Source: a virus (lineage: Duplodnaviria > Heunggongvirae > Uroviricota > Caudoviricetes). Taken from it: 64,000 nt of DNA. This document shows, piece after piece, positions 21,030 to 55,750 of the stretch. The notes beneath the pieces were generated by a model that was not told where the DNA came from, did not search any database, and saw nothing but the letters and a program-made list of their open reading frames with translations. Within the stretch, counting starts at the first letter, position 1. Every line of letters starts with the position of its first letter. The DNA is taken from the IMG/VR virus record IMGVR_UViG_3300026473_000783; one strand, written 5' to 3'. Position numbers and translations under genes: made by a program.

Positions 21030-21422
21030 TTATTTTTGATTGAATTGTTTAAGAAGACCAATTCCAACGATCACAGACGAGATCCAGCCGTAGATGTCAG
21101 CTAAATTAGCGACACAATAATTCAAATTAATGAAATCAACCACTCCAGCAGAATCAAAGCGACCCACATAGTTCCCTAAGAAAGAGGCTAAAACGAGCGC
21201 ATAAGCCCACTGTTGAGATTTTTTAGATTCAAGCATAGAAACTGTGAAAAGAGAGAATCCAATCAAGGCAAGAGGCGCTCCAAACTTTATAAGGTCATTT
21301 GAAGCTAAATTAAAGACCATATCTTTATTGTAAACAACCAAGTTTGGGAAGAAAAGAGTTGCCATTTTTTTTGAAGCAAGGTCTAAAACTAAAAGAATGA
21401 TTGTTTTGATTGCTGTGTTCAT
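21030..21422 (-). CDS. signal peptidase II (LspA)-like membrane protein
   Basis: GVVDFINL....VANLADIYG...VIVGIGLL resembles LspA VVDF / FNxAD motifs; paralog 38588..38980. Confidence 0.5.
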   Translation of the reverse strand: MNTAIKTIILLVLDLASKKMATLFFPNLVVYNKDMVFNLASNDLIKFGAPLALIGFSLFTVSMLESKKSQQWAYALVLASFLGNYVGRFDSAGVVDFINLNYCVANLADIYGWISSVIVGIGLLKQFNQK

Positions 21423-21433
21423 GCTAAATCAAG

Positions 21434-21570
21434 GGTGCAATTCCAATACCAGCATTAAGTCGCTTATGTTTGATTTAATAGAGGCTCGTGTCAAAACAAA
21501 TGACAAACATCCACTAAGATATTGATTTTATTTGGTGTCAAACTTTTAGGCGATGATTAAAGGATTGACA
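21434..21570 (-). promoter_or_regulatory. sigma-54 promoter cassette
   Basis: CTGGTATTGGAATTGCA; UAS 21522-21570 with perfect TGTCAAAC-N20-TTGACA; ATG 15 nt from -12. Confidence 0.55.
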
Positions 21571-21964
21571 TTAGTTTTTGCTTTTTTTTGAGATTTGAGA
21601 GAGTTGTTTTAAAATCTGGATTTGGAACAATCTTAACCCCTCGATAGAAATCTTCATTAATTTCTAAGGCTTCTAAACAAAAATCAACAGATTGGGTTTT
21701 CATGAGGGAAAGAAGATCATTTCCTCTATCACCATAAAGCTCTTTAATAGCTTCTAAAACTACTATATAATTTGGATTATTCATAAATGCCAAAACAGAA
21801 TAATCACTATGTATGAAGCGAAATTGTTCATGAGGCTCTAAGCTATTTAGGACTTCTACATAAGAGTCAAATTCTTCTTGATTACAGCGACTATCCTTAA
21901 CCCAATTTTGAAACCATCCACTGTATTCGTTAAGAGCGTTCAATAGCTCAGTTTGTTCTTTCAT
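21557..21964 (-). CDS. family-B DUF4116-like repeat protein
   Basis: ...DFCLEALEINEDFYRGVKIVPNPDFKTTLSNLKKKQKLMSIL. Confidence 0.5.
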   Translation of the reverse strand: MKEQTELLNALNEYSGWFQNWVKDSRCNQEEFDSYVEVLNSLEPHEQFRFIHSDYSVLAFMNNPNYIVVLEAIKELYGDRGNDLLSLMKTQSVDFCLEALEINEDFYRGVKIVPNPDFKTTLSNLKKKQKLMSIL

Positions 21965-21970
21965 GACCTT

Positions 21971-22252
21971 TTATCCTACCTGAATATTATTTCTTTTAAG
22001 CAGGGCTTTGTATTGATTTGAAAAATTAACGACAACCACATTATCGACTCGGTCCAACACTTTTTGACCATTTGATTCTACATCAAATTGAGAATAATAA
22101 TCTTTATATTCTTTTTGAGATTGAGCCTCAACTTCTTTAATGATTGATTGGCTCATTTCAAGTCCAACAGAAGAAACTTCTTTTCTGATCGTTAAAAGTT
22201 TATCTAAAGTAAAGATTGAAACAACTGCGATAATTGATAAAATTAAAAACAT
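21971..22252 (-). CDS. small membrane protein (94 aa)
   Basis: Sigma-54 -24/-12 at 22278-22297 lies inside track ORF; internal Met 22252 with RBS GGGAG. Confidence 0.45.
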   Translation of the reverse strand: MFLILSIIAVVSIFTLDKLLTIRKEVSSVGLEMSQSIIKEVEAQSQKEYKDYYSQFDVESNGQKVLDRVDNVVVVNFSNQYKALLKRNNIQVG

Positions 22253-22277
22253 ATAGCTCCCTTGTTTTCTTCTTAGA

Positions 22278-22415
22278 GATGCAATCAAAATGCCAGCATC
22301 TAAAGCCTTTATATTGTGTTTAAAATCCTTCATTGTCAAAGAGTTGATCATTCTTTGTCTAACCCCTTAATTTTATTAGGTGTCAAACTTTTAGGCGATG
22401 AATAGAACTTTTACA
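22278..22415 (-). promoter_or_regulatory. sigma-54 promoter cassette
   Basis: CTGGCATTTTGATTGCA; UAS 22366-22415. Confidence 0.6.
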
Positions 22416-22565
22416 AGAGTGTTTTCTCATTTTATCTAAAAATCCAAAAATATCGTTTATATCCGTTTTCATGATTAAACAATTCTTATTCTTCTTTTAA
22501 ACAATTCTGATTAATTTCTTTATTGAAAACATTTGGCTCCACTCTTCTGTATCTTGCTAAAGAAA

Positions 22566-22916
22566 TTATCGTCGATTCTTTAGATTTTTATAATAATCAA
22601 AGTATCTTGGTGAGGCAGGGTGGTTATCAGGATCGTGATGAACAAACCCCACGAGCACCATAAGAAGAGGCACAATAAGCATAAGATTGCCAACTACATT
22701 TGGATTATCATACCAAGGAACATTTGCAACATCCGATTCTTGAACTATTGTTTGGGGAACAGATCCGATTTTTTGACAAGTGTATCCGTTTATTGTTTCA
22801 ACGCAAGAAACTTTTGATGTATCCACGAATGGATTCTTATTCCAAGGCACATTTGCGGTATCTGCTTGAGCCATTGCTGATCCGATAATTAGAGCTGCGA
22901 ACATGATTTTTTTCAT
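22566..22916 (-). CDS. secreted/membrane-anchored protein with ANVPW(N/Y)xNP repeats
   Basis: Signal peptide MKKIMFAALIIGSAMAQA after RBS AAGGAA; C-terminal TM. Confidence 0.45.
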   Translation of the reverse strand: MKKIMFAALIIGSAMAQADTANVPWNKNPFVDTSKVSCVETINGYTCQKIGSVPQTIVQESDVANVPWYDNPNVVGNLMLIVPLLMVLVGFVHHDPDNHPASPRYFDYYKNLKNRR

Positions 22917-22948
22917 AAAATTTCCTTTTTTGTTTTTCATTCCTTTAT

Positions 22949-23088
22949 GTAGCAAATGAAATGCCAGCCTCTAAAGCCTTTATGTTTGATCTAACAAGAG
23001 AGGGTTGTTTAAGAAATTGACAAATCTATTCTAAGTGGTTGATTTTATTAGGTGTCAAACTTATAAACGACGACTAAACTTTTAACAT
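22949..23088 (-). promoter_or_regulatory. sigma-54 promoter cassette
   Basis: CTGGCATTTCATTTGCT; UAS 23038-23088. Confidence 0.6.
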
Positions 23089-23435
23089 CAAAAATCATAA
23101 GAATAGAGGATCTTATCTTTTTTGAAAATAAGAGAATGATTCTTGTTTTTTATTTCAAATTTAGGATCACTCATCCAATAAGCGACAGCAAGAGGTTTTG
23201 ACATACCTGTTTTTTCAACCAACACTTGACCCCTATAGTTGATGTTTTTCTCAACTATCTTAAGATCTTCGCAAATTTGAACCTTAGAACTTTGACAAGC
23301 TTCCAAAACTGTCCGAATCGGATCTGAAAAAGCATAAATTGGAATTAATAGAATTAAAACGATTTTAAGCAACATATTGACCCGCCAAAAATTGAATCGG
23401 CATAACTGTGATAAGTTTGTTTTGTTGGAAAACAA
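23088..23435 (-). CDS. hypothetical secreted protein
   Basis: Internal signal-like segment LLKIVLILLIPIYAFS. Confidence 0.3.
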   Translation of the reverse strand: MFSNKTNLSQLCRFNFWRVNMLLKIVLILLIPIYAFSDPIRTVLEACQSSKVQICEDLKIVEKNINYRGQVLVEKTGMSKPLAVAYWMSDPKFEIKNKNHSLIFKKDKILYSYDF

Positions 23436-23634
23436 AGATCTTATCTGCTAATAAGAAAGCTTTTGATCCATTGTGCTTTTTTGATTTTTCGATATAAGAA
23501 TCTTTAAGGGGAGATTCCAAGATGTCAATTCCTTGGTTTATCGCTTTTTTAGCAAAAAACTTAAGAGCTGACGCGTCCATTTTGAATCTTTCAAAAGCTC
23601 TATCTATAGCATGTTGGCTTATTATTAAGTTCAT
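23365..23634 (-). CDS. hypothetical protein (~90 aa)
   Basis: Track start TTG; ATG at 23634 lies 14 nt from the sigma-54 -12. Confidence 0.4.
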   Translation of the reverse strand: MNLIISQHAIDRAFERFKMDASALKFFAKKAINQGIDILESPLKDSYIEKSKKHNGSKAFLLADKIFVFQQNKLITVMPIQFLAGQYVA

Positions 23635-23644
23635 AACAAACAAA

Positions 23645-23780
23645 GAAGCAAGAATAGAGCCAGCTTCAAATTAAACAGGTTAGACCTAATAGAACTGATT
23701 GTTTAGAGAATTGACATAAATCTTCTAACCACTTGATTTTATTGGGTGTCAAACTTATAGGCGATGGAGAATTGTTTTAC
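23645..23780 (-). promoter_or_regulatory. sigma-54 promoter cassette
   Basis: CTGGCTCTATTCTTGCT; UAS 23733-23780. Confidence 0.55.
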
Positions 23781-24382
23781 AATCCAAGAGCAAGAGCTTT
23801 TTCTGGAGTCATCTTGTAAGTGAATCGAATTCTTCTCGAAACTTTAAATGTTGATATTTGGTTTGAGTCAATAGTTCCCATCTTATAATTTGGTCCAAAA
23901 GTTTTTTCTAATCTTTCATTGCTCATGTTGAAAAGAGCAGTCATCGCGATTGGTAAAAATTTTCTTTTATCTTCACTGATCACATAGTGGATTTTCTTAG
24001 ATTTTGGAACTTTTGTTGTTTTCATCGAATGTTTCACATTGATTTTAGCGTTATGTGTTTGATTAAGTTCATTCATTTTAGCTAAAAATTGAGATCCATG
24101 AGAAGGTCTTTTTTTTAAGATTTGAATTTCCCAAATGTGGATAAGTTCATGAGCAATAACTGAGATCAATTCTTGTTCTGTCCAGTTAAAGTTTTTAGAA
24201 ATTTTCATTTCTCTCACAAGAACTATTTGCCCAAATAAAGTGTTAAAATGAACTTGTCCAGCTGCTTTTGACGTGTTAGATAGCTTGATTGGAAAATTGA
24301 TATTAAGCTCTCCATTGAACATTGAAGCATTTACATGGTGAGTTAGTTCTATGATTTGTTGAAGAAGTTGTTTGTTTTCCAT
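23777..24382 (-). CDS. SprT-like zinc metalloprotease-family protein
   Basis: VIAHELIHIWE...HGSQFLAKM (HExxH + HG..F); start reassigned to Met 24382, 15 nt from -12. Confidence 0.5.
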   Translation of the reverse strand: MENKQLLQQIIELTHHVNASMFNGELNINFPIKLSNTSKAAGQVHFNTLFGQIVLVREMKISKNFNWTEQELISVIAHELIHIWEIQILKKRPSHGSQFLAKMNELNQTHNAKINVKHSMKTTKVPKSKKIHYVISEDKRKFLPIAMTALFNMSNERLEKTFGPNYKMGTIDSNQISTFKVSRRIRFTYKMTPEKALALGL

Positions 24383-24393
24383 GATTTTAGATA

Positions 24394-24532
24394 GATGCAA
24401 TTTAATTGCCACCTTTAAATGGAATCTATTCGATCTAATAGAGGGGATTGTTTAGAGAGTTGACACAAATCTTCTAAGTGTTTGATTTTATTAAGTGTCG
24501 ATCTTTTAGTCGGTGTTTAATCGTTTGTCAAT
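24394..24532 (-). promoter_or_regulatory. sigma-54 promoter cassette
   Basis: GTGGCAATTAAATTGCA; UAS 24482-24532 (variant). Confidence 0.5.
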
Positions 24533-24680
24533 CTTCTCCAAATCCGACAGAATGATTATATGTTTTACAATTTAAACAAACACAGCGATCATAATGAGAA
24601 TCTGTAATTTTCCATTGATGTTTTCCAAAAAAAACATTTTATAAAACTTATGAAGCGGCTCATTTTATTCCTTTTTAAAA

Positions 24681-24929
24681 TTAATCTTCCAATTCCATAT
24701 CTTTTAAGAGTTCTGGAAAACATCCACAATCTTCAGTTTTAGATGTTTCTTCTGCTGTTGTCCATTTTTTTTCAATGACAAGCCCAGTTTTAGCGGACCA
24801 TTTGGAAATGAGTTGATTTGAAACTTCATGATGTTCATAAACTTTTTTGCCATCGACAAATAAACCTTCCCAATCGTTTCCAGTTGATACTAAAACTAAT
24901 GATTTGTATTTTTTTGCGCTTTTTTTCAT
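24681..24929 (-). CDS. hypothetical protein (82 aa)
   Basis: ORF only. Confidence 0.35.
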   Translation of the reverse strand: MKKSAKKYKSLVLVSTGNDWEGLFVDGKKVYEHHEVSNQLISKWSAKTGLVIEKKWTTAEETSKTEDCGCFPELLKDMELED

Positions 24930-25139
24930 AGATTTATCTTCTCTTCATTTGTGGTAATTGTCAATGTTTATTTAAATTCTTCGATTTTGTGATTGGAACG
25001 AATAAATTCTTCAATTTCTCCACTAAGATTCCAAAAGATAACAGCACCTTTTGGGGGAATAATTTTAATAGGGGTTAAAGTTTGTGGATTTGATAAGCTT
25101 AATTGTTAAAAGTTTAGACGGTTTATGGTCTAAGCTCTT

Positions 25140-25185
25140 GATTTAAGGAGGTGTCAAACTTTTATCTGATGTTTAAAATATAATC
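25140..25185 (-). promoter_or_regulatory. UAS-like palindromic site without a recognisable -24/-12 partner
   Basis: cttgatttaaggaggtgtcaaacttttatctgatg; no GG-N10-GC found between here and 24929. Confidence 0.3.
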
Positions 25186-25669
25186 AGCGATTAATTGCGT
25201 CTAAAATAGCTTTCTTTTCTTTTAGATTTCGAAGCGTTGTCTCAAAATCTGGATTTGAAACTATTTTTACATCTCTAAAACAAATCGGAAACTCTTCTAA
25301 AGCTAAAATACATAAATCAACGCTTTGATTTTGGATTTCTGTCATAACAAAAGGATTTAAACCCATAGCTAATTCACATAAATGTTTTTTTTGATCTTTA
25401 ACAAATTTAATAGACCACGGATCTCTGTTTATTGCTGATTTACAGATTGAATCGTTTTGATTTAAGATTACGGATAAAATTGTAGAATCTATTGATAAGT
25501 ATTTACAGACTTCCTCTTCACTAATTTGATTTAGCCAATTTTTAAAAAGATTCATTTCTTGATCAGAGCATATTTCAGTTCTTGACCAATTCATAAATGA
25601 ATAATGGTTATGCCCTTTATAAGATTCTAGTTTTGATTCAAATAATGTTTTTATGTCTTCATTTGTCAT
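25184..25669 (-). CDS. family-B DUF4116-like repeat protein
   Basis: MTNEDIKTLFE...VKIVSNPDFETTLRNLKEKKAILDAINR. Confidence 0.55.
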   Translation of the reverse strand: MTNEDIKTLFESKLESYKGHNHYSFMNWSRTEICSDQEMNLFKNWLNQISEEEVCKYLSIDSTILSVILNQNDSICKSAINRDPWSIKFVKDQKKHLCELAMGLNPFVMTEIQNQSVDLCILALEEFPICFRDVKIVSNPDFETTLRNLKEKKAILDAINR

Positions 25670-30029: not shown

Positions 30030-30051
30030 AAAAACCTCTTTAGAGTAAATA

Positions 30052-30190
30052 ATAGCAAAAATTAAGCCAAGCTTTAAGTCGCATATAGATGATTTGAGAC
30101 AAGGGGTGTAAAAACTTTGGATAGATATTTTAGATAAGTGGTTGATTTTATTAGATGTCAAACTTTTAATCGATGAGTAAAAGCTTGACA
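30052..30190 (-). promoter_or_regulatory. sigma-54 promoter cassette
   Basis: TTGGCTTAATTTTTGCT; UAS 30141-30190. Confidence 0.6.
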
Positions 30191-30401
30191 CTTTCTAAAT
30201 TTTGATTTATTTCTACAAATTGTAAAAATTATCTTATATTTGTTTTGTTCAATTATATGGAACATATGTACATGATTTTAGAACAGTAAAAAACCCATAA
30301 TTTAAATGACGGATACCGCTCATTAGATAATAGGCTCAAGAATCACAATTTTGGCTGTTCAGAAATTATTAGAAGTTGTTAATGGGTTGTTTGTTTTAAG
30401 A

Positions 30402-31490: not shown

Positions 31491-31925
31491 TTATATTTTG
31501 TTAATTTCAAAAAATAATTTGTTAGATTGTTTAGATGAACAAATCAGTTGAAGATTAGAATGTATTTTTTCTTTTCCACCGATACGAAAAAAATAACCAT
31601 TTTTTAAAAAGTTTAATAATTTTTCTTGTAAATCAGGTGCGAGTTGATTAGATTCGTATAGAAGTAAAATTCCACCATTTGCCACTTCGATTAGTCCAAT
31701 TTTTTTATGATAAGCATTTTTAAAAGAACCTTTCTCATGACCAAAGATTTCAGATTCTAACAAAATACCAGATAAAGCCGAACAATTGATCATAATAAGA
31801 GGTTTGTCTTTTCGATCACTTCTTTGATGAAAATCACGACAGAACTCTTCTGCTTCATTAAGTGATTCTTTTAAGATAAGTATTGGTTTTGGTATTTTCA
31901 TAGAGATAGTATCGGAATTTTTCAT
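31491..31925 (-). CDS. truncated, degenerate sigma-54 activator (bEBP AAA+) fragment
   Basis: INCSALSGILLESEIFGHEKGSFKNA....GLIEVANGGILLLYESNQLAPDLQEKLLNFLKNGYFFRIGGKEKIH aligns to bEBP NCAAIPE.LLESELFGHEKGAFTGA...GGTLFLDEI..L....Q.KLLRVL....F.R.GG; Walker A replaced (KESLNEAE), GAFTGA->GSFKNA, Walker B DE->YE; only 144 aa. Confidence 0.5.
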   Translation of the reverse strand: MKNSDTISMKIPKPILILKESLNEAEEFCRDFHQRSDRKDKPLIMINCSALSGILLESEIFGHEKGSFKNAYHKKIGLIEVANGGILLLYESNQLAPDLQEKLLNFLKNGYFFRIGGKEKIHSNLQLICSSKQSNKLFFEINKI

Positions 31926-34820: not shown

Positions 34821-34841
34821 TATCTTATCTCCTATAATCAT

Positions 34842-34980
34842 TTTAGCAAATAATAGGCCAACCCTAAATCGAATATATTCTCTTTAAAGGACTTAACTGT
34901 TAAAGATTTAAACAGATATCTTCTAAGCTATTGATTAGACAGCTGTTAAACTTTTAATCGATGAATAAAGAATTAACAGC
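34842..34980 (-). promoter_or_regulatory. sigma-54 promoter cassette
   Basis: TTGGCCTATTATTTGCT; UAS variant TGTTAAAC...TTAACAG at 34930-34980. Confidence 0.55.
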
Positions 34981-34983
34981 TCC

Positions 34984-35994
34984 CTATTTAGAAGCTAAGT
35001 TTCTTTCTATCGATTTTAAAGAAGGGGTTGATTGATTGTTTTTTTCTAAAATCTTTAATTTCTCAAAATCAATCACTAAACTTTGATTAGAACTGTTCGA
35101 TATTGATTTTAAAAATTTATGAACATCTCTAGTTGAATTTTTATCTTGAGTCGATAAATATAAAGAAATTAAGCCTGATACAACTCCAACAGCTTGACTA
35201 ACTCCAGACATTTTAACGCCAAATCCGATAAGTTTAGCTCCATGCGTTATGACAAGATTTGAGTCATTAGACCAGCTCGATTTTGGATCTAAACTATTTA
35301 ATTCTTTATCAAAATTTGAAACTATAATCATGTTTTTCGTTTTCAAAGAGGCAGGATAGATCGGGGATTTGTCAATGTTTATCCCATCATTTCCAGTTGA
35401 GGCGACAATGATAATTCCTGCTTTTTCCGCTTCTAAAATGGCTTCTTTTTCTTTTTTTGAAAAATCAGGCCCAGCTATTGATAAATTGATAATATCCACT
35501 TTTGATTTAATCGCTAATTTAATCGCTTCAACTTCGTTATTTAAAGAATTTCCTTTAAAAAGAGAGCTGTAGTATTTTATAGGTAAAATTTTAACTTCTT
35601 GATTGATCCCAAGAATGATTCCAGATATATTTGTTCCGTGAAGAAGTTGATCATTCATTCCTGTATTTGTCAGATCATATCCTGAAAAGTTTTTAATCTT
35701 TTCTGGATTGTAGATTTTACTTTTTAATTGATGGATAAGTTCTTTTCTAAGTCCAGTATCGATAATTGCTATTTTTATTTCTCTTCTCTGTTTTAATGAA
35801 AGGTTGGGTAAATTGTAATTTTGTTTAAAGAAATCGGTTTGTTCTTGAATAATGTCTTTTTTAATAAATTTGGAGAAAAACGATTCAGGATTTTCTTTAT
35901 GGATATAGGTGAATGTTTTAGGCAATTTCTTAGGAAATTTATTCTCTTGATTTGAGCAACTTACTAAAAATAATATGAAAATAAATTTCTTCAT
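34984..35994 (-). CDS. subtilisin-like (S8) lipoprotein, degenerate
   Basis: MKKFIFILFLVSC lipobox; IAIIDTGL (Asp), HGTNISG (His), SGVSQAVGVVSG (Ser-motif-like); ATG at the predicted sigma-54 TSS (leaderless). Confidence 0.5.
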   Translation of the reverse strand: MKKFIFILFLVSCSNQENKFPKKLPKTFTYIHKENPESFFSKFIKKDIIQEQTDFFKQNYNLPNLSLKQRREIKIAIIDTGLRKELIHQLKSKIYNPEKIKNFSGYDLTNTGMNDQLLHGTNISGIILGINQEVKILPIKYYSSLFKGNSLNNEVEAIKLAIKSKVDIINLSIAGPDFSKKEKEAILEAEKAGIIIVASTGNDGINIDKSPIYPASLKTKNMIIVSNFDKELNSLDPKSSWSNDSNLVITHGAKLIGFGVKMSGVSQAVGVVSGLISLYLSTQDKNSTRDVHKFLKSISNSSNQSLVIDFEKLKILEKNNQSTPSLKSIERNLASK

Positions 35995-36004
35995 ATGTTT
36001 CATT

Positions 36005-36146
36005 GAAGCAAGAATGAGGCCAGTGTAAGATTGGTTTATATTTGATTTAATAGATGTGATGTCAATTTTTTAGACTATGAATTGAGTTAAATACTTGATT
36101 TTATTAGGTGTCAAACTTTTAGTGAGTGTTTAAAGGTTTGACACGT
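36005..36146 (-). promoter_or_regulatory. sigma-54 promoter cassette
   Basis: CTGGCCTCATTCTTGCT; UAS 36094-36146. Confidence 0.6.
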
Positions 36147-36983: not shown

Positions 36984-37186
36984 TTCTTTATAATAAGATA
37001 AAAGACCAATAAAGTCAAACAAAATGTGAATTAAGCGATAATTGTAAATTTTTTCTTATATTTAATTTGTTTGAATTTTAATTACTCTTTACTTTATCAT
37101 AGAAGAAAAAGCAAAACTATCAACTTTTTAATATATATTATATGAAATCTGGAGATTAAATAATAGTAAAATCCTTTAAGTATTTG

Positions 37187-38587: not shown

Positions 38588-38980
38588 TTATTTTTTAATC
38601 AGCTGCTTAAAAAGGCTGAATCCTACAATTAAAGAAGAGATCCATCCGTAAATATCGGCTAAATTTGCTACACACCACCCTAAATTGATAAAATCTACAA
38701 CCCCGTTAGAATCGAATCTACCAATGTAATTGCCTAGAAATGAGGCTAAAACAAAGCTATAAGCCCATTGTTGCGTTTTTTTAGATTCAATCATAGAAAC
38801 TGTATAAATTGAAAAACAAATCAATCCTAGAGGTAATATGAACTTTACCGTATCATTTGCTAATAGGTTAAAAACCATATCTTTATTGTAGACGACTAAA
38901 TCACTAAAAAAAATAGTGGCTATTTTTTTTGAGATAAGGTCTAAACTAAGTAAAAAGATTGTTTTAACAGTTGTGTTCAT
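38588..38980 (-). CDS. signal peptidase II (LspA)-like membrane protein
   Basis: Paralog of 21030..21422; start reassigned to MNTTVK Met, 15 nt from the -12. Confidence 0.5.
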   Translation of the reverse strand: MNTTVKTIFLLSLDLISKKIATIFFSDLVVYNKDMVFNLLANDTVKFILPLGLICFSIYTVSMIESKKTQQWAYSFVLASFLGNYIGRFDSNGVVDFINLGWCVANLADIYGWISSLIVGFSLFKQLIKK

Positions 38981-38991
38981 AATCAACCATC

Positions 38992-39120
38992 GTAGCAATT
39001 GATAGGCCAATTTAAAACAAACCTATTCGATTTAATAGATAGGATTGTTTAAAGATTTGATAGAAATACTTTAAGTTATTGATTTTACTAGATGTAAAAC
39101 TTTTAATCGATGTCAAAAAA
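38992..39120 (-). promoter_or_regulatory. sigma-54 promoter cassette
   Basis: TTGGCCTATCAATTGCT; UAS 39077-39120. Confidence 0.6.
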
Positions 39121-39592: not shown

Positions 39593-40000
39593 CATAAAAT
39601 AGTCTAAAATAGCTTTTTTTTCTTTAAGATTTTCAAGAGTAATCTCATAGTTAGTATTTCGGACGATCCGAATATATGGATATATATGTTGATTTTTTTC
39701 TAAAGCGATAAGACACAAATCAACCGTTTGCTCTTTTATGTATTGAATGCAATATGATGATATTTCAACGCTTTTTTTACATAAATTATTTGATTGGGTT
39801 GAGATTAAAGAAAGCACTGAATTATCTATTTCTATGTACTTTAAAACTTTTTCTTCACTTAATGAATTAAAATAATTTTTAAAAAGATAAAATTCTTCTT
39901 TTGTACAAAAATTATATTCAGGCCATAAATCAATAGATTGCCAAAAATGGTTTTCTTGAACTTTTTTTAAGAATAATTCTTTAATTTTTTGATTTGTCAT
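39590..40000 (-). CDS. family-B DUF4116-like repeat protein
   Basis: MTNQKIKELF...IRIVRNTNYEITLENLKEKKAILDYFM. Confidence 0.5.
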   Translation of the reverse strand: MTNQKIKELFLKKVQENHFWQSIDLWPEYNFCTKEEFYLFKNYFNSLSEEKVLKYIEIDNSVLSLISTQSNNLCKKSVEISSYCIQYIKEQTVDLCLIALEKNQHIYPYIRIVRNTNYEITLENLKEKKAILDYFM

Positions 40001-43430: not shown

Positions 43431-43648
43431 CTTTTTGGCCGCAATATATCATTGAACCAATCGGAGATTATCTCCGAAATCCTCCGTTAGAAGGTTCTTC
43501 TCTCATCAAAACCAATATATGGTCTCTCCAGAAGCTTAAACTCTAATTTTTTAGAGTTTTCCCCATTAAAGTGGGGTCATGAACTTATTTAACCACTTCT
43601 TCCCTATTTTGTCAAGAAAAAAATAACTCAATAAAATCAATTACTTAG
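43431..43648 (-). repeat. structured ~220-bp repeat, copy B (solo)
   Basis: About 95% identical to 47988-48168 and to the reverse complement of 49865-50085; contains hairpins CCCCA-N6-TGGGG, CGGAGATTATCTCCG, AACTCTA-N7-TAGAGTT; begins with partial UAS and TTGACA-N17-TTAAAT; ends at start of 43162..43419. Confidence 0.6.
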
Positions 43649-43860
43649 TATAGGGGTGTATGATTTTATTGTTGTTTTATGACAAAAACATTAGTAAAAA
43701 CAACTTGAATGAAGTTGAGGGTTTTATGTTTTGTAAATTATTGTTTTTACTTGATAAAATATATTTTAGCAACACTCAAGTATCACTCCCCTGCTTTAAC
43801 TATTTGAATTGATTAGATGTTAAAATTATAGTCAGTGCTTAGAAAATATACAGGTCATTT

Positions 43861-44328
43861 TTATTTTAAAGCTTCTATAATTTCTTTTTTCTCTTTAAGG
43901 TTTTTAAGAGTTGTTTCAAAATCTGGATTTGAAACAATTCTAACATATCTATAAACAAAGCGTTCTTGTTTTAAAGCTAAAAGACATAAATCGACACTTT
44001 GTATTTTTATGCTTTTTAAACAAAGCGGATTACGACTAATCGCAAGTTTAGAAAAATGATAGGCTTGTTCTGAAACAATCCCAATAACCCAAGAATTGGC
44101 CTCAATTGATTTTAAGATAAATTGTTCAGTTTTATTTTCTATTGCTGAAAAAATAGTGTGGTCTTTTTTAAAAAGATCAAACAACTCCTCGTCGTTGAGT
44201 TGATTTGGCCATTTTTTGAAAAGAATCATTTCATTTTCTGTACAGATATTTTCTTTTACCCAATTAACAAATAAATAGTTTTTGTTTTTTTTCTTTTCAA
44301 ATAAATTTTTAATTTCTTGATTTGTCAT
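43861..44328 (-). CDS. family-B DUF4116-like repeat protein
   Basis: MTNQEIKNLFE...VRIVSNPDFETTLKNLKEKKEIIEALK. Confidence 0.55.
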   Translation of the reverse strand: MTNQEIKNLFEKKKNKNYLFVNWVKENICTENEMILFKKWPNQLNDEELFDLFKKDHTIFSAIENKTEQFILKSIEANSWVIGIVSEQAYHFSKLAISRNPLCLKSIKIQSVDLCLLALKQERFVYRYVRIVSNPDFETTLKNLKEKKEIIEALK

Positions 44329-45544: not shown

Positions 45545-45865
45545 TTAGCAATCAAAAAACTTATCACATCGCGTTAAAACTTTCCCTCTTTTTCGCCAAA
45601 ACTCAACAATTTCAAGGGAGGATTGAGCTGTTTGGTCAAAATACTCAAAAGGGGTTAGTTTTTGATTTAAAGCTTCTTCAACCTTATCGTAAAGATAGGT
45701 CGCAACGCCTTTTCTTCTGTATTTTGGATCAACAAAGCAATTAAAAGCGATAAGTTTGTTTTCTTTTTTTAAAACAGTTAAAAATCCAACCCTAAAATCG
45801 TCATCCCAAACTTCGAATTGTAAATTTTCACTATTTTTTATTGTTTTTGTTATTTTTAAATCCAT
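45545..45865 (-). CDS. GNAT-family N-acetyltransferase
   Basis: VDPKYRRKGVATYLYDKVEE; sigma-54 cassette TTGGCACCTTTATTGCT with ATG 14 nt from -12. Confidence 0.5.
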   Translation of the reverse strand: MDLKITKTIKNSENLQFEVWDDDFRVGFLTVLKKENKLIAFNCFVDPKYRRKGVATYLYDKVEEALNQKLTPFEYFDQTAQSSLEIVEFWRKRGKVLTRCDKFFDC

Positions 45866-45875
45866 AACTTGATGA

Positions 45876-46022
45876 TAAGCAATAAAGGTGCCAAGTCATG
45901 TCGTTTTTATTTCATTTAAAAACGCTTCTAAACGAGCACTGTTTAACTTTTTTACAAATCTTAGCTAAGAGGTTGATTTTGTTAGGTGTCGAGCTTATAG
46001 GCGATGTTAAGAGGTTTTACAC
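45876..46022 (-). promoter_or_regulatory. sigma-54 promoter cassette
   Basis: TTGGCACCTTTATTGCT; UAS 45971-46022. Confidence 0.65.
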
Positions 46023-46142: not shown

Positions 46143-46928
46143 TCATTGACCTTGCTTTAAATTCTTTAAATCAAGAAGAGGTGTTCCGCCACTTCCAATA
46201 ACTGTTGGCAGGACTCCATTCCATTTTTCAATAGCCATTTTTTGTAAAAGCATAGGAGTGATAGAGGATCTAAGCAAAGCTTGAGCCTCAGCTTGTCCCT
46301 TTGCTGTATTCACTAGAGCTTGCGATTCATTTTTTGCTTTTTCAGCTAAATACAAAGCTCTTTTTGCTTCTTGCTCAGCCACCATTTTTTGTTCAACTGA
46401 TTGCGTATATTCTCGGCTAAAAGTTAAGTTCACAATTGATACATCTCGAACCTTAATATTGTATTTAGCTAATCGTTCAATTAAATCATTATCAATCTCA
46501 TCTTTAAGCTCTTGACGCTTCGATAAAACTTCATCAAGGGTTCTTTTTGAAGTTGATTTTTTCAAAACCTCATGAACAGCAGGGTAAAGAACTCGTTCAA
46601 CCGCAGTATCTTCGTCTCCAAATTCAGAAACAATTTTTACAACATTTTCTGGATCAACCTGATAGTTTACAGCTATATGAACTTCAACTTGTTGATTTCC
46701 TAATGCAACTGCTTCACTTTTTTCAATATCAGCTTTTTGTGTTTGAACCGAGATTTTTCTAACAGAAGAAACCAATGGAAACACGAAATAAACATCCGGT
46801 TCCAAAGGCTTTTCATTAACTTTTCCAAAAGTTACACGAACACCTCGTTCACCAGGGCCAACGACTGTACAAGAGCTGATTATCCCGAGCACTGAGAGTA
46901 GCGTTAATAGTTTTGTTATTTTTTTCAT
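46143..46928 (-). CDS. SPFH/band-7 domain lipoprotein
   Basis: Lipobox LGIISSC; prohibitin/HflC-like core followed by coiled coil. Confidence 0.65.
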   Translation of the reverse strand: MKKITKLLTLLSVLGIISSCTVVGPGERGVRVTFGKVNEKPLEPDVYFVFPLVSSVRKISVQTQKADIEKSEAVALGNQQVEVHIAVNYQVDPENVVKIVSEFGDEDTAVERVLYPAVHEVLKKSTSKRTLDEVLSKRQELKDEIDNDLIERLAKYNIKVRDVSIVNLTFSREYTQSVEQKMVAEQEAKRALYLAEKAKNESQALVNTAKGQAEAQALLRSSITPMLLQKMAIEKWNGVLPTVIGSGGTPLLDLKNLKQGQ

Positions 46929-48168: not shown

Positions 48169-50085
48169 ATAAAAGATTCAAAGAATTTTATTGTTTTTCT
48201 TTGTATTTGAAATTTTAATAAGACCTCTTCCAACTTTATAAATAACAAGTGCGGCATTATGATCTGCGTCCATTCTGTAATTACAACTGGTACAGATAAA
48301 TTTTTTGTCTTTTCGACTATCTTGATCCGTCTTCCCACAACAGCTACAAGTTTGAGAAGTGAACTTAGGGTCAACTTTTTTAACATTTTTTGAGTACTCA
48401 TTTAATTTTTGAGCAAAATAACCCCAGTTTTTAGAAAGAATAGATCTGTTTAAACCAGTTTTTTGAGAAACTTTCTTTCCAGGATTGTCAACATTGCCTT
48501 TAGCTGTTTTTGTCATATTTGATATTTTTAAATCTTCAATATAGATATCTTCACTTTTTTTCGCAATTAAAGTGGCTTCTTTTTTTAGAAAATTTTCTTT
48601 TTGTCTTTTAAGTTTTAATTGAAGCTTTGAGATTTTTCTAATTTCTTTTTTAAAATTTTTAGAGTCTCTATCTTTTTTTCTTCTATACAACATAGATTTC
48701 TTTTTTGGAATTATTTTTTCTAAATTTAAAATATATTCTGGAAAATCAATGCTTTTATATTTGACCTGATTTGGGTTTTTATTTGACACAATCGCAATAG
48801 CGGTTTTTGTTGAAATACCTCGGTCAATTCCAACTGAGCTTTTTTTGACAACTTCTTTTTTTACAGTTTTTTCTTGAATAGAAAAAATTACAAACCACTC
48901 ACTTCCCTCTTTTTTAAACTGAACAGTTCTTACATTTTCAACTAGAAAAGGTTTAAAGCATTTAAATTTCAAATATCCAAGGTCAAATTTTTCTTTTATA
49001 TCTTCATAATTTTTAGAAATACAAAAATAAGCATATGAAGAATTTGAATTTTCTTCAAAAGTCGTGTTCCATAAATTTTTAAACGCATTTTTAAAACCAA
49101 TAAATCCACTGTCTCTCTCACTTTTATAGCGAGGAATTCCAGCTTTTTTCGGGTCTTTTTTTAAATTTCTAAAAAATTGTTTATAAGAATCCTCACTTTT
49201 ATCAAATACATTATTAAAAAAGCTTGAACAAAACGGAAGAATTTTGTTTTTACGATTCTTTTTCATTTGAGTAAATTCTTTTTGTAGAACAGCTTTTGAA
49301 AAATTTTCATTTTTAAATGAACTTTGGAAATGATAAGGAATCTTGATTGAAAATACTTTTTTGTCTTTTTTCGATAAGTTCAGCTCTTTTCCAATGTTTG
49401 AATTAAGCCTGTTTTCAAAATTAAAGAAAACAACTGTTAAAAAACTTCTTAATTTATTCCGTTCCTTTAACTCTTCTTCTTTTTCGCTATCTTTTAGTTT
49501 TTTAAATTTATCAAAACTTGCTGAAATCAACTCATTTAATTCTTTAATTCTACGATCCGAAATTTTGATCGATTGTCTTTCCGCGATTTTTATTATTTGT
49601 TTCGCATCGAAAATATCTATTTTGTCTTTTTTCTCAATTTTATTAAAATTATAAAAATCTTGAGATTCTATTTGTTTTTCAACAATCGCATTCCATAAAT
49701 CTTTAGAAGCATTTTCCATTTTTTCTAAAATTGATCTCTGTTTTTCATTTAAATATAGTTTATATTTATAGTTTTTTATAGTCGTTTCCATATATTCATT
49801 TAAACACATTTTTCAATAAAAATAAAGAATTAAGACTTTGAACCTAAAAAAATATGTATTTTTCTAAGTAATTGATTTTATTGAGTTATTTTTTTTCTTG
49901 ACAAAATAGGGAAGAAGTGGTTAAATAAGTTCATGACCCCACTTTAATGGGGAAAACTCTAAAAAATTAGAGTTTAAGCTTCTGGAGAGACCATATATTG
50001 GTTTTGATGAGAGAAGAACCTTTTAACGAAGGATTTCGGAGATAATCTCTGATTGGTTCAATGATATATTGCGACCAAAAAGGAG
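47988..50085 (-). mobile_element. candidate TnpB-only IS200/IS605-like (IS1341-type) element, or tnpB inserted between inverted promoter-leader repeats
   Basis: tnpB bracketed by inverted ~200-bp repeats; no tnpA; the right-end/omega-RNA-like structured sequence sits directly after the tnpB stop. Confidence 0.45.
48178..49809 (-). CDS. tnpB: TnpB-family RNA-guided endonuclease homolog (IS200/IS605 OrfB / Cas12-like), 543 aa, catalytic motifs intact
   Basis: N-term NYKYKLYLNEKQRSILEKM...LWNAIVEK (TnpB HTH pattern); RuvC-I VGIDRGI; RuvC-II IYIEDLKISNM; zinc finger CSCCG...CTSCNYRM; RuvC-III DADHNAALVI; ~140 aa longer than typical TnpB. Confidence 0.75.
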   Translation of the reverse strand: MCLNEYMETTIKNYKYKLYLNEKQRSILEKMENASKDLWNAIVEKQIESQDFYNFNKIEKKDKIDIFDAKQIIKIAERQSIKISDRRIKELNELISASFDKFKKLKDSEKEEELKERNKLRSFLTVVFFNFENRLNSNIGKELNLSKKDKKVFSIKIPYHFQSSFKNENFSKAVLQKEFTQMKKNRKNKILPFCSSFFNNVFDKSEDSYKQFFRNLKKDPKKAGIPRYKSERDSGFIGFKNAFKNLWNTTFEENSNSSYAYFCISKNYEDIKEKFDLGYLKFKCFKPFLVENVRTVQFKKEGSEWFVIFSIQEKTVKKEVVKKSSVGIDRGISTKTAIAIVSNKNPNQVKYKSIDFPEYILNLEKIIPKKKSMLYRRKKDRDSKNFKKEIRKISKLQLKLKRQKENFLKKEATLIAKKSEDIYIEDLKISNMTKTAKGNVDNPGKKVSQKTGLNRSILSKNWGYFAQKLNEYSKNVKKVDPKFTSQTCSCCGKTDQDSRKDKKFICTSCNYRMDADHNAALVIYKVGRGLIKISNTKKNNKIL

Positions 50086-53182: not shown

Positions 53183-53923
53183 TTATTGAAGAGAGCGAAC
53201 AATCGATGAAGCTAAAAAACGAGGTGCACTTGCAGAAGTTCCAACAAATTGTCTTTTATCGTATCTAAAATAGTCATAAATATCAATAGAACCTCTATAA
53301 TAATCGACAGCGTCTATAGAACTACCATAATTGCTACCTTTATCAAAAGATTTGCGATCTAGACTAATTCCACCTACACATATTTTATTTTTTAATCGAT
53401 AAGAACAAAGCTCGTTTTGAGAAGCGTCAGCGCTATCATTTCCTGCAGAGACTATTATTTTTGTTTTTTCAGAAACCTCCAATAAAAGATCTTTTTCTGA
53501 TTGTTTCAAATTTGGAATAATCATTGAGATATTTATAGCGGTTAAATTAAGTGATTTAAATTGAGATAAGCAATTTTCGATAGATAGAGTTTCATCCATT
53601 TGACAGTAGATAATTTCTACATTTGATACTTTGTATTTTTCAAAAATAGAAACCATTTCGCTTATAACCGCTTCCCCATGAAGGTCATTAGCTTGCTCAA
53701 TAAAAACAACTTTAGGTTTTGATATTTGAATTGAAGATTTGTATTTTAAAGAAGATTCTGTCCATTTGACAGGATACACGTCAATAACCCCAATTTTGAT
53801 TTTTTCATTTTTTGAAATATCAAATTTAAAAGAAATACTTCTCTGAACAAGCTCTTTGACCCGTTCTGATGGGTGCTGGACTACGCTTGATAATAATAGG
53901 CACATTACTAATTTTTTAAACAT
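53183..53923 (-). CDS. secreted subtilisin-like (S8) protein, short/degenerate
   Basis: IGVIDVYP, HGEAVISEM, FVGTSASAPRFLA; ATG 13 nt from sigma-54 -12. Confidence 0.5.
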   Translation of the reverse strand: MFKKLVMCLLLSSVVQHPSERVKELVQRSISFKFDISKNEKIKIGVIDVYPVKWTESSLKYKSSIQISKPKVVFIEQANDLHGEAVISEMVSIFEKYKVSNVEIIYCQMDETLSIENCLSQFKSLNLTAINISMIIPNLKQSEKDLLLEVSEKTKIIVSAGNDSADASQNELCSYRLKNKICVGGISLDRKSFDKGSNYGSSIDAVDYYRGSIDIYDYFRYDKRQFVGTSASAPRFLASSIVRSLQ

Positions 53924-53932
53924 ACATAAAAT

Positions 53933-54070
53933 GTAGCAAGAAAAAGGCCAAATCTATATATTTTATATTGGATTTGGGGTATGGAAATGTTTAAAGATTT
54001 TACAGAGAATGATCTAAGTCGTTGATTTTATGAGGTGTTAATCTTTTAGTCGGTGGTTAAAAGATTGACA
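53933..54070 (-). promoter_or_regulatory. sigma-54 promoter cassette
   Basis: TTGGCCTTTTTCTTGCT; UAS 54021-54070. Confidence 0.6.
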
Positions 54071-54459
54071 TAGGGAGTTTATTTAATCACCAACTCTCAT
54101 AGGGTAGATTCAATGGGTGCTTGTTGTATAATAAAAGAAAGTGTTTATTTTAAACGATATATTTTTATTTAAGTATTGTTTTAAAAAACAAGAAAAAAGG
54201 CGACTAGGTAAGGGGGGCTAGCCGCCATGGGGGGTACTCATGTAAGGATAAGATACTTTTTAAAAATTATCAACTCTTTATATTAAAATACCAAATAAAA
54301 TTTTATAAACTATTGATTTCATTTCTTTTTTTTTGAAAAATTTTAAATAGGCTAATTGACTTTCAATGCAGAAAATAGATTTTTAATTTCTCCAAAAAAT
54401 CTAGAATGACCATTAAATAGAGTTTTTAATAGTAAATTCTTATTTTTTAAATTATTGAA

Positions 54460-55038
54460 TTAGTCAAAAAGAGCTAATATAGCTTGTTTTTCTTTTAAAC
54501 CTTTTAAAGTCGACTCATAAGTGGAATTATCTGAAACAATTAAACAAAGTTTAAAAAAGTTTCTGCTCGAATGTTGAGTTTTTGTTAAAAATTCTATCCA
54601 CTCTTGGACAGTCATGTCTAAAGGATTTCCAAAAAAAACCATTGAACCTTTTACTTCAGGAAGATTGTTTATTTTTTTCAATTTATTGTATTGACAATAA
54701 AAACCGCCAATAGCTTTTAATGGACTTCCTTCTAATGAAGTGAGTTGATTATAGGAACAATCGCAAATCTGATTGACTTCTTTAGGAAAATACTGTGATG
54801 ATTTAAGTTGATTATGAGAACAATCAAAATCTCCCAAAACTTTTTTAGGAGAACCTTTTAGTGATTTAAGATTATTTACTGATAAAATAAAATCTCCATG
54901 AGCGATTCCAAAATTAAAAGGGATTTCTGATAAATTTCGATTGCTCAAGTCGACATTCTGAAAACAATCCAAAACTCCCGTTTTTTCAAACTTTTCTTTA
55001 TCATATTTGGTAATTCCAAAATCTTCCGGTCTTTTCAT
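54460..55038 (-). CDS. family-A LRR-like protein
   Basis: MKRPEDFGITKYDKEKF...; co-operonic with metzincin gene. Confidence 0.55.
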   Translation of the reverse strand: MKRPEDFGITKYDKEKFEKTGVLDCFQNVDLSNRNLSEIPFNFGIAHGDFILSVNNLKSLKGSPKKVLGDFDCSHNQLKSSQYFPKEVNQICDCSYNQLTSLEGSPLKAIGGFYCQYNKLKKINNLPEVKGSMVFFGNPLDMTVQEWIEFLTKTQHSSRNFFKLCLIVSDNSTYESTLKGLKEKQAILALFD

Positions 55039-55046
55039 AAATCCTC

Positions 55047-55601
55047 TTAATTTTTAACTAAACTATCAACTATCCCTAATTGTTTCTTCCAATCTTTAAC
55101 TAAATCAAGATCCCAACTTCTCGATACAAAATCCCCCAAATAAGGATACATCAATTTTTTGTCATGAGTATGTTGAAGCCCTAAAGAATGCATTAACTCG
55201 TGCCTTGCTAATGTTCTAAAATCAACATACGGATAAGCGTCATTAAACAAAATATCTCTTTTAAAGATTGAAATGCCAAAATAAAGCGTTAAAGTTCTGG
55301 CTTGTTCTCCAATTTTAAAAGAATCTCTACTTTTCCAGTAAAGTCCATTTTTAAAAGTTAAATATCTATTTTGAGAATCAATATCTTCACCTACACTAAA
55401 AACCTCAAATCCAGCGACTTGATTAAAGCTTTTCATTTCTTCAATCATTTCTTTCTTTTTATTTGAAGGAAACTCTTTATGAAAAGAGAATTGAATCGGA
55501 AATTTTCTGGATAAAACCGGACTATCCCCTACAAATAAATATAAACGATTCTGATTTAGGGTTAAAAGTGGAAATAATAGAGTTAAGATAAATGTTTTCA
55601 T
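55047..55601 (-). CDS. metzincin-type zinc metalloprotease
   Basis: ARHELMHSLGLQH; track start TTG, Met 55601 is 15 nt from -12. Confidence 0.55.
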   Translation of the reverse strand: MKTFILTLLFPLLTLNQNRLYLFVGDSPVLSRKFPIQFSFHKEFPSNKKKEMIEEMKSFNQVAGFEVFSVGEDIDSQNRYLTFKNGLYWKSRDSFKIGEQARTLTLYFGISIFKRDILFNDAYPYVDFRTLARHELMHSLGLQHTHDKKLMYPYLGDFVSRSWDLDLVKDWKKQLGIVDSLVKN

Positions 55602-55612
55602 ATAGTTCAATT

Positions 55613-55750
55613 AAAGCAAAATATGTGCCTGGCCTATAAGCTTTATATTAGATTTGGTGGAAAGAATTGTTTAAAGATTTGATAGTTTTCTGCTAAGTTG
55701 TTGATTTTATGAGGTGTCAATCTTTTAGTCGATGATTAAAAGAATGACAT
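55613..55750 (-). promoter_or_regulatory. sigma-54 promoter cassette
   Basis: CAGGCACATATTTTGCT; UAS 55700-55750. Confidence 0.55.

Follow-up and report, generated by a model that had tools for sequence, protein, structure and literature searches.

Sigma-54-type promoters predicted to be positioned for leaderless mRNAs on a repeated cassette in a 64-kb viral record

Introduction

Promoters read by sigma-54 share the consensus TGGCAC-N5-TTGCW, with a GG at -24 and a GC at -12 that lie 10 nt apart. A genome usually has few of them, they stay silent unless an activator acts, and the mRNAs that they give are leadered; the nifH, Pu, and glnHp2 types are enhancer dependent and carry a site for integration host factor (IHF). 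Bacterial leaderless mRNAs include that of lambda cI and the sigma-70-driven sets in Campylobacter jejuni, Helicobacter pylori, and Sinorhizobium meliloti, and are abundant in Deinococcus. We describe a 64,000-nt stretch of DNA filed as viral (IMG/VR record IMGVR_UViG_3300026473_000783, Caudoviricetes; hereafter the window) with two dozen sigma-54-type promoters on a repeated module of about 165 nt, nine of them placed so that transcription and translation would begin at the same nucleotides. The novelty lies in the combination of known kinds of element: sigma-54 promoters, leaderless mRNAs, and promoter cassettes.

In the transcript map of C. jejuni, every leaderless mRNA follows a sigma-70 -10 box (PMC3847290). 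Those in S. meliloti all begin with AUG, and the available part of that report gives no sigma assignment (PMC3616915); the transcription start site (TSS) map of Chlamydia pneumoniae contains five leaderless mRNAs and has no sigma-54 promoter before any protein-coding gene. The sequence-only reading of this DNA had held that sigma-54-dependent leaderless transcripts are rarely described, and our full-text literature searches agree, finding no description of them and likewise none of phage sigma-54 promoters, a silence that is weak evidence in both cases. The nine genes resemble the known leaderless sets in using ATG only, in lacking a Shine-Dalgarno (SD) sequence, and in having the start codon at the predicted TSS. 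They differ in their promoters, as the predicted leaderless genes of the window, here read from sequence alone, follow sigma-54-type (nine), sigma-28-type (three), and sigma-70-type (two) promoters.

Compared with the sigma-54 promoters that carry IHF sites, the window promoters have the same GG and GC 10 nt apart, a T before the GG and a C after it, TTGC(A/T), an exact WATCAANNNNTTR together with inverted repeats 80 to 150 nt upstream, and a location just before genes on the same strand, and many of the window products are secreted or membrane proteins. They depart from these promoters in occurring as 24 near-identical, repeat-borne copies within 64 kb, nine of which leave no room for a leader, and in having an IHF-type site that adjoins the putative enhancer palindrome rather than lying midway; moreover, the window shows no sigma-54 gene and no activator that is intact.

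The closest analogue of the repeat itself is the promoter-early or promoter-middle stem-loop (PeSL or PmSL) cassette known from T4-like phages (Arbiol 2010; Comeau 2014), in which a stem-loop, an early or middle promoter, and an SD are repeated before ORFans and mediate gene shuffling (PMC4122927). The window repeat is likewise a conserved intergenic palindrome and promoter, usually followed by an SD and then a start codon, it stands before small ORFans in a co-oriented hyperplastic region, and degraded half-copies are present; it thus shares the composite of stem-loop and promoter repeated across a hyperplastic ORFan region. However, the promoter is an early one of the sigma-70 type in PeSLs and a middle one with a MotA box in PmSLs, whereas the window cassette has no sigma-70 promoter with 16- to 18-nt spacing and none of the T4-like sigma-70/MotA type, but a -24/-12 promoter instead, together with an IHF-type site, and is about twice as long. 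Integron cassettes offer a further likeness, in that many small genes without relationship to each other follow in one orientation over a long array and are split by a conserved and partly palindromic repeat, although they are typically promoterless, whereas the window repeat lies 5' of its gene and bears the promoter, and many array genes have no repeat. We considered and rejected an integron attC array, as there is no integrase among the 89 open reading frames (ORFs) scanned and neither the R''/L''/L'/R' architecture nor a GTTRRRY core.

A -24/-12 motif before start codons

The pattern GGC-N7-TTGC has 24 exact matches in the window, all on the minus strand, compared with 1.5 +/- 1.1 in shuffled sequences, and TGGCAC-N5-TTGC with two mismatches allowed has 44 matches compared with 17 expected. 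A start codon lies 13 to 42 nt after 23 of the 24 exact sites and after a GGT variant at 21450, and the sole exact site not before a start is intragenic (46274-46287). The match spans all eight of the most conserved positions of the sigma-54 consensus at exact spacing, and with its 24 exact sites, its conservation, and its retention in relatives the motif answers to the sequence definition of a sigma-54 promoter.

The distance from the C of the -12 element to the start codon is bimodal. In the short class (n = 9) it is 13 nt once, 14 nt four times, and 15 nt four times, and in the long class (n = 15) it is 25, 25, 25, 26, 26, 26, 27, 28, 29, 29, 30, 34, 34, 36, and 42 nt; no start lies at 16 to 24 nt, and 9 of the 24 starts fall within a 3-nt window (binomial 1.6e-4 compared with a uniform spread). 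The eight minus-strand sites flagged by the sequence-only reading, which had placed the A of the ATG 13 to 15 nt past the -12 C, all read (T/A)GG(C/T)-N7-TTGC and keep that placement, with 13 nt at 53923, 14 nt at 23634, 35994, and 45865, and 15 nt at 21422, 24382, 38980, and 55601. A ninth case lies outside the range considered earlier, with its ATG at 4057 and a distance of 14 nt.

The two classes also differ in their translation signals. An SD is absent from all nine short-class genes, as had been claimed for the flagged sites, with anti-SD duplex energies of -3.3 kcal/mol or above that are positive in eight, whereas a GGAG-type SD precedes every one of the 15 long-class genes, with energies of -3.1 to -10.2 kcal/mol (13 scored). 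Short-class genes all start with ATG, so that the AUG start and missing SD of leaderless genes are found in 9 of 9, and long-class genes mostly do. No long-class SD begins closer to the -12 C than nt 13, as predicted if transcription starts near nt 12. In C. jejuni, which is AT rich and has the same three sigma factors, mapped TSSs lie 8 to 13 nt past GGaa-N6-tTGCTt, corresponding to 10 to 15 nt past the C (PMC3847290). The claim that the predicted TSS coincides with the start codon therefore stands as far as 13 to 15 nt lies within this mapped range, but a TSS at nt 12 would give a 5' untranslated region (UTR) of 1 to 3 nt, rather than strictly none.

The nine short-class units are all on the minus strand. 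That at 21420..21451 consists of TGGTATTGGAATTGC (21437-21451), 14 nt, and ATG 21422, which opens the gene for a 130-aa LspA-like protein (21030-21422; Pfam PF01252), and that at 38978..39009 consists of TGGCCTATCAATTGC, 14 nt, and ATG 38980, with the listed ORF beginning at TTG 39010. The unit at 23632..23662 has TGGCTCTATTCTTGC, 13 nt, and ATG 23634 (listed from TTG 23643, past the -12 element), and that at 24380..24411 has TGGCAATTAAATTGC, 14 nt, and ATG 24382 (listed from GTG 24412, within the -24 element), the latter opening an SprT-like gene (23777-24382). At 35992..36022, TGGCCTCATTCTTGC and 13 nt precede ATG 35994 of a subtilase lipoprotein (MKKFIFILFLVSC; Pfam, 2.8e-20) in which a second in-frame ATG, 36003, lies just 5 nt past the -12 C. 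The unit at 45863..45893 carries TGGCACCTTTATTGC, an exact sigma-54 consensus, followed by 13 nt and ATG 45865. The remaining three are 53921..53950 (TGGCCTTTTTCTTGC, 12 nt, ATG 53923; MFKKLVMCLLLSS), 55599..55630 (AGGCACATATTTTGC, 14 nt, ATG 55601, listed from TTG 55610; MKTFILTLLFPLL), and 4055..4085 (AGGCATTTTATTTGC, 13 nt, ATG 4057; MKQIITTIILLA).

The sequence-only reading had further regarded the listed N-termini of these genes as over-extended through the promoter, and this holds for five of its eight cases, in which the listed start (TTG 23643, GTG 24412, ATG 36003, TTG 39010, and TTG 55610) lies inside or just past the motif; the other three (21422, 45865, and 53923) are already listed from the proposed ATG. 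The products of the 21422 and 38980 genes are paralogues with 74% identity that have the ATG in common, and the longer ORF is disfavored because upstream in-frame TTGs exist at 38980 alone. Signal-peptide-like N-termini start right at the proposed ATG in six of the nine short-class genes (e.g., MKKFIFILFLVSC and MFKKLVMCLLLSS), and an alternative SD-led downstream start is found in none of the nine. The practical lesson is that gene callers over-extend N-termini through such promoters.

It could be argued that the resemblance is due to chance or to annotation, and that the short-class ORFs are unexpressed or start elsewhere, as AT-rich DNA yields spurious ORFs and weak matches, with 17 of the two-mismatch matches expected. 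The exact motif is nonetheless present at 16 times expectation and is wholly strand specific, the short-class genes include the subtilase, the SprT-like gene, and the two LspA-like paralogues, and no short-class gene has another SD-led start. We regard this explanation as very improbable, and the statistics bring it close to refuted.

Two further arrangements touch on the spacing. The short-class cassette at 38974-39124 (-) (motif at 39008) and the long-class cassette at 39439-39598 (-) (motif at 39472) are 460 nt apart and identical over the central 45 nt, and diverge 3' of TTGCTAC, where the long member has an extra AGGAG segment; the former ends TTGAT-T-ATG, a leaderless type, and the latter TTGAT-AGGAGATAAAT-ATG, and the two look like a natural pair differing by the SD segment. 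Two dual-start cassettes, at 22916-22965 (-) and at about 1100-1133 (-) of the assembly L025, which extends beyond the window, have an ATG 12 to 14 nt past the -12 C and an in-frame, SD-led ATG five to eight codons further on; either start or both could be used.

The repeat that carries the promoter

A 25-mer, AAAGTTTGACACCTAATAAAATCAA, recurs about 25 times in the window, on the minus strand only, and in 23 of the 25 copies that bear this core the -24/-12 motif lies about 97 nt downstream of it. A profile search recovers 24 full copies of a longer repeat (about 150 to 180 nt) and three partial ones (25085-25192, 37164-37234, and a weak one at 43790-43861). The repeat comprises, 5' to 3', an imperfect inverted repeat GTGTCAAnCTTTTAA / TAAAAGTTTGACAC (H1), an A/T tract, AATCAAnnnnTTA(G), a variable stretch, a TTTGACA or TTTAAACA box, AAATCnAATATAA, and TTGGC-N7-TTGC(T/A), such that a palindrome TGTCAA...TTGACA is near -130, an IHF-type site (AATCAA-N4-TTA and A/T tract) near -100, and a TTGACA box near -66.

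The best-scoring full copy (nhmmer) is at 6022..6185 (-), with H1 GTGTCAAnCTTTTAA/TAAAAGTTTGACAC, the IHF-type AATCAAnnnnTTA, TTGACA, AAATCCAATATAA, and TTGGCC-N6-TTGC; it belongs to the long class, with a 33-nt leader containing AGGAG and ATG 6007. The other long-class copies, all on the minus strand, are at 1685-1845, 4831-5009, 6538-6699, 11095-11258, 13472-13622, 14049-14205, 17165-17319, 19175-19338, 20172-20334, 22267-22425, 22932-23095, 30036-30197, 34835-34985, and 39439-39598. Truncated copies at 25085..25192 and 37164-37234 (-) retain the core and the IHF-type site and have lost the -24/-12 part; the genes 3' of them use ordinary sigma-70-type promoters, that after 37164-37234 being TTGACT-N17-TATTAT.

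When whole repeats are aligned without anchoring on the motif, the TGGC and TTGC columns are at least 90% conserved and the 7 nt between them are variable, and these are the best-conserved columns of the promoter-proximal half; the C of GGC is conserved too, though it was not a selection criterion. Diverged copies, one in the sequence L047 and two each in L074 and L073, all three from other metagenomes, as well as two in L025 beyond the window, retain (T/C)GG-N8-TTGC(A/T), and in those of L047 and L074 the adjoining TTGACA and TATAA blocks are lost while GG-N10-GC is kept. Of the 25 cores, 24 contain an exact match to the IHF consensus WATCAANNNNTTR, and this match together with the TGTCAA/TTGACA repeats suggests putative enhancer and IHF features, although the geometry is atypical.

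Several other readings of the conserved blocks were rejected. The TTGACA-N19-21-TATAA pair of the cassette is too widely spaced for a sigma-70 promoter, at 19 to 21 nt compared with 17 nt in the true sigma-70-type promoters elsewhere in the window, and is lost in relatives; a scan for sigma-70 promoters with 16- to 18-nt spacing across 19000-25300 gave 28 matches compared with 26.4 expected, as by chance, with none placed consistently in cassettes. Taking TTGGCn as a -35 box fits few copies and at 11128 would leave the SD outside the transcript, and an extended -10 at TGC-TACAAT would suit some of the copies only, leaving the conserved GG unexplained. A T4 MotA-box reading of TGCTTnA finds no -10 box at the proper distance. 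Likewise, the conserved 25-mer was dismissed as a T7-like single-subunit polymerase promoter, as no consistent start or leader follows it and it matches the IHF consensus instead. Palindrome covariation is weak (H2 variable positions match 1.7 compared with 0.9 in controls, and H1 7.8 compared with 7.4), and with no U-tract either, H1 and H2 were discarded as intrinsic terminators or attC-like hairpins.

These properties also raise the question of whether the repeat serves chiefly for recombination or mobility, for example as a PeSL-like element, a miniature inverted-repeat transposable element, or the site of an IHF-using recombinase. On that view the fixed distance to the ATG would simply reflect where the repeat stops on its right side, transcripts would arrive from upstream (as read-through or starting at the weak TTGACA-N19-21-TATAA pair), and the short-class genes would be translated without an SD inside a longer U/A-rich RNA. 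The repeat of about 165 nt is indeed highly conserved, co-oriented, and adjacent to ORFans, its palindromes and IHF-type site are like those of many recombination sites and transposon ends, truncated copies are present, adjacent copies are the most similar to each other, PeSLs provide a precedent (PMC4122927), and read-through is possible, as H1 and H2 are not terminators. However, an edge effect predicts a one-sided spread of starts from about nt 8, and not a cluster at 13 to 15, an empty stretch at 16 to 24, and SDs confined to nt 13 and beyond; the TTGACA and TATAA blocks on which upstream transcription would depend are lost in the diverged relatives that retain GG-N10-GC, and their spacing falls outside the 16 to 18 nt of the canonical sigma-70 promoters of the window. 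There is no integrase or transposase linked to the repeat, the R/L boxes and GTTRRRY of attC sites are absent, and all 24 copies lie 13 to 42 nt before a start codon in the orientation of the gene, unlike random insertions. The two distance classes, moreover, recur at sigma-28- and sigma-70-type promoters outside the repeat, as described below. We consider it unlikely that recombination is the main role of the repeat.

A search for related arrays in species genomes with an exact 22-mer and a 19-base degenerate pattern gave chance singletons only, and none were found among IMG/VR viral contigs or by blastn against phage and plasmid records; a metagenome scan yielded L047 and L068 as true relatives. 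We saw no cassettes gained or lost between relatives, and overlapping assemblies are 100% identical save for one inversion, a rearrangement between inverted paralogous gene starts and not between cassettes. We note that a repeat of about 150 nt in far more GC-rich contigs (L056, L058, and L063, from Ga0256830, and L004, from the Nitrospirae metagenome-assembled genome DRKX01000037.1) holds CAAGGTCAACA(C/T)CTAATAAAATCAAGG(A/G)CTTA, nearly equal to the core of the window repeat, and has no Rfam match. Its flanks diverge after GAAC(A/T)TGGG, as at the end of a mobile element, and either convergence on an IHF-type site or distant kinship could account for the resemblance.

Sigma-28- and sigma-70-type promoters

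A second repeated promoter, met while checking genes without an SD, has the FliA-type pattern T(A/T)AAG-N13-17-CCGA-N-(A/T)A, of which there are 20 matches, all on the minus strand, compared with 0.9 in shuffles; 19 lie just before genes and most read TAAAGTTT-N11-12-CCGATAA, corresponding to the FliA/sigma-28 consensus TNAAG-N14-GCCGATA (cited in PMC3333780). Their first bases (-) are at 838, 1401, 2483, 4448, 5184, 10874, 14828, 16848, 18750, 20951, 25706, 26626, 27387, 37934, 38556, 41329, 42204, 45542, and 47367. These too fall into a short class, in which an ATG without an SD lies 7, 8, or 10 nt past the -10 box (14794, 18715, and 25669), and a long class of 12 genes with the ATG at 18 to 42 nt and an SD; sigma-28 TSSs in C. 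jejuni lie 6 to 8 nt past CGATwt (PMC3847290). Two genes with sigma-70-type promoters, 36983 and 63401 (-), also look leaderless, with the ATG 6 nt past the -10 box. The former reads TTGACT-N17-TATTAT-AAAGAA-ATG and is listed from TTG 37022, inside its promoter, and the latter reads TATAAT-GATTAA-ATG.

The leaderless geometry is thus a property of the replicon and not of sigma-54 alone, because it recurs at promoters of three types, with a distance that fits each of them, and this recurrence would be hard to explain were TGGC-N7-TTGC not a promoter. What the earlier interpretation needs is widening, not correction: the promoters sit on a large repeated regulatory cassette, and sigma-54 is not alone in showing the geometry.

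A flagellar sigma factor consensus before many nonflagellar genes, including proteases, surface proteins, and unknowns, is also seen in the attack-phase FliA regulon of Bdellovibrio bacteriovorus, in which 92 of 140 promoters have TTAAG-N16-CCGATA (PMC3627812), compared with 19 such promoters here. The replicon is far more AT rich, however (29% G+C in the window), and the likeness concerns the second promoter class only. At one sigma-28-type promoter (10806-10874 [-]), 9 nt are followed by an 11-codon ORF (MMRKYVNKVNE) whose stop overlaps the ATG of a 450-aa gene (ATGAATGA), and this may be a leaderless upstream ORF coupled to that gene.

Initiation from the cassettes

The arrangement that we propose is one in which about 24 transcription units begin with the ~165-nt regulatory cassette, and sigma-54 RNA polymerase, opened by an enhancer-binding ATPase, would start 10 to 15 nt past the -12 C. 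At 15 cassettes the resulting leader of 11 to 30 nt would hold an SD, and at nine the ATG would be at the start point, giving an mRNA that is leaderless or has a 5' UTR of 1 to 3 nt and that would be translated by direct ribosome binding to the 5'-terminal AUG. The cassette probably serves also as a PeSL-like site of homologous exchange that shuffles genes. We infer from the DNA the recognition by sigma-54, the exact start site, the binding of IHF and activator, and the leaderless translation. The proposal of sigma-54 promoters positioned for leaderless mRNAs is supported by every sequence-level test run, and we consider that these are probably sigma-54-type promoters giving mRNAs with no leader or one of 1 to 3 nt, a view held with some confidence but well short of assurance.

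Several points weigh against it. All copies descend from one repeat, and the consensus match is therefore effectively one observation together with a conservation pattern. In most copies the -24 box reads TGGC(C/T/A)T where the consensus has TGGCAC, the poorly spaced sigma-70-like TTGACA-N19-21-TATAA pair of the cassette could give an upstream start, and read-through from upstream genes is possible because H1 and H2 are unconvincing as terminators. A TSS at nt 12 would put the ATG at +2 to +4 rather than +1, and among the seven copies from relatives or beyond the window there is no unambiguous short-class example. On the protein side, neither the 64 kb nor about 12 kb of extensions beyond its edges (-3.1 kb and +9.4 kb, including L025 and L076) shows rpoN, an ihf gene, or a gene for an intact bacterial enhancer-binding protein (bEBP), and the sole activator candidate within the 64 kb has lost its ATPase and GAFTGA motifs. 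Finally, scans of 185,579 species genomes turned up no relatives.

The activator candidate is a 144-aa ORF at 31491..31925 (-) coding for a truncated and degenerate bEBP AAA+ (sigma-54-interaction) domain. It aligns with the AAA+ cores of NifA, NtrC1, FleQ, and PspF (E about 1e-22), with about 40% identity to NifA, NtrC1, and PspF, but KESLNEAE stands in place of Walker A GESGTGKE, GSFKNA in place of GAFTGA, and YE in place of the Walker B DE. It appears to be a decayed activator gene or possibly a decoy or anti-activator, and its presence within the array is counted in favor of sigma-54; an intact activator may be encoded elsewhere in the genome or in the host. Homologue searches with the LspA-like protein and with the bEBP fragment found hardly anything beyond the queries, and in a tblastn search of phage records with Escherichia coli RpoN and PspF the best among the matches listed look like bacterial contigs filed as phages.

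It is also conceivable that the promoter is real, with the predicted start, but is read by something other than host sigma-54, such as a phage-encoded sigma factor or polymerase with a look-alike site. The replicon has phage-like traits (PHROG matches, HD hydrolase relatives, Imm_superinfect, small co-oriented ORFans, and contigs of 233 to 419 kb), its relatives are similar ORFan-rich contigs, large phages commonly have transcription factors of their own, and rpoN is not seen in the window or its extensions. Against this, all eight top sigma-54 positions are matched at exact spacing and are selectively conserved, and the promoter comes with an IHF-type site and upstream palindromes, as sigma-54 promoters usually do. 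The second repeated promoter of the window is a near-perfect FliA consensus, which argues for standard bacterial holoenzymes, and the array contains the remnant of a sigma-54 activator. We regard a different reader as quite improbable.

If the sigma-54 reading is confirmed, sigma-54 (and sigma-28) would join the promoter types that make leaderless mRNAs, and a whole enhancer-dependent control region (palindrome, IHF site, and -24/-12 element) could spread as a cassette before newly acquired genes. The window would also provide a natural matched set of near-identical promoters with and without a leader (39008 and 39472) for the study of start choice by sigma-54 holoenzyme and of 70S binding to a 5'-terminal AUG.

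Gene content and nature of the replicon

The genes of the window are small and mostly unknown and form a hyperplastic array in a common orientation, with nearly all ORFs on the minus strand and units headed by repeated alternative-sigma promoters. ENA metagenome contigs of 72 and 75 kb, Logan contigs, and one JGI contig match the window with 100% identity, and window proteins are also recorded on contigs of 233 and 419 kb. No tRNAs were found in the window, and Rfam scans gave no family at gathering or E-value thresholds. The cargo includes secreted proteases (subtilase, matrixin, and astacin), an Endonuclease_NS nuclease, two LspA-like proteins, Band_7, TPM, an HD hydrolase, GNAT, PTH2, an Rv2179c-like exonuclease, GmrSD, Tox-REase-9, an ORF6N anti-repressor, Imm_superinfect, TnpB, DUF4116 and leucine-rich repeat (LRR) families, and many ORFans.

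The evidence points both ways, to a huge phage or to an AT-rich bacterium. Counting toward a huge phage are the matches of about one-third of the window ORFs to PHROG families, the small co-oriented genes, the lack of relatives among species genomes, and the nearest Band_7 relatives, which sit on similar ORFan-rich contigs with phage-type Pfam matches. The HD hydrolase at 19661-20155 has 57% identity to proteins of ~190-kb Vibrio phages, 43 to 54% to those of jumbo and huge phages (BcepSauron, LR756504, and LR756508), and 43 to 47% to those of 484- to 636-kb uncultured phages, relationships that hint at a huge-phage identity for the replicon. It is one of two paralogous small HD-domain genes (HD_4, alarmone-hydrolase-like), the other being at 37398-37895, both on the minus strand. 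The outer-membrane and lipoprotein repertoire and the precedent of Bdellovibrio FliA promoters driving proteases and surface proteins (PMC3627812) count toward a bacterium.

We entertain as a possibility, though a doubtful one, that the replicon is a huge phage or similar extrachromosomal element whose hyperplastic ORFan arrays are served by two sets of mobile promoter cassettes. These would borrow the flagellar-type sigma factors of the host, sigma-54 (with IHF and an activator) and sigma-28/FliA, forming two tightly gated temporal classes, with at least one-third of sigma-54-class messages leaderless. If the huge-phage reading is true, there would be no precedent for either sigma-54-dependent phage gene expression or leaderless mRNAs driven by sigma-54.

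An LRR family whose members start MKKPEDFGIT(K/N)YDKE has window paralogues at about 560, 38512, 42159, and 55038. Two metagenome assemblies of one element (L025 4526-9671 and L026 1-4877) differ by the inversion of a 4.9-kb segment. At its boundaries lie the first ~350 nt of two LRR paralogues, in inverted orientation, and the inversion swaps the C-terminal parts of these paralogues in the manner of a shufflon or tail-fiber switch. A 543-aa TnpB (IS605 OrfB/Cas12f-like) is encoded at 48178-49809 (-) with no adjacent tnpA, and AAAATCAATTACTTA is present in inverted orientation at 43628-43647 (+) and 49865-49884 (-).

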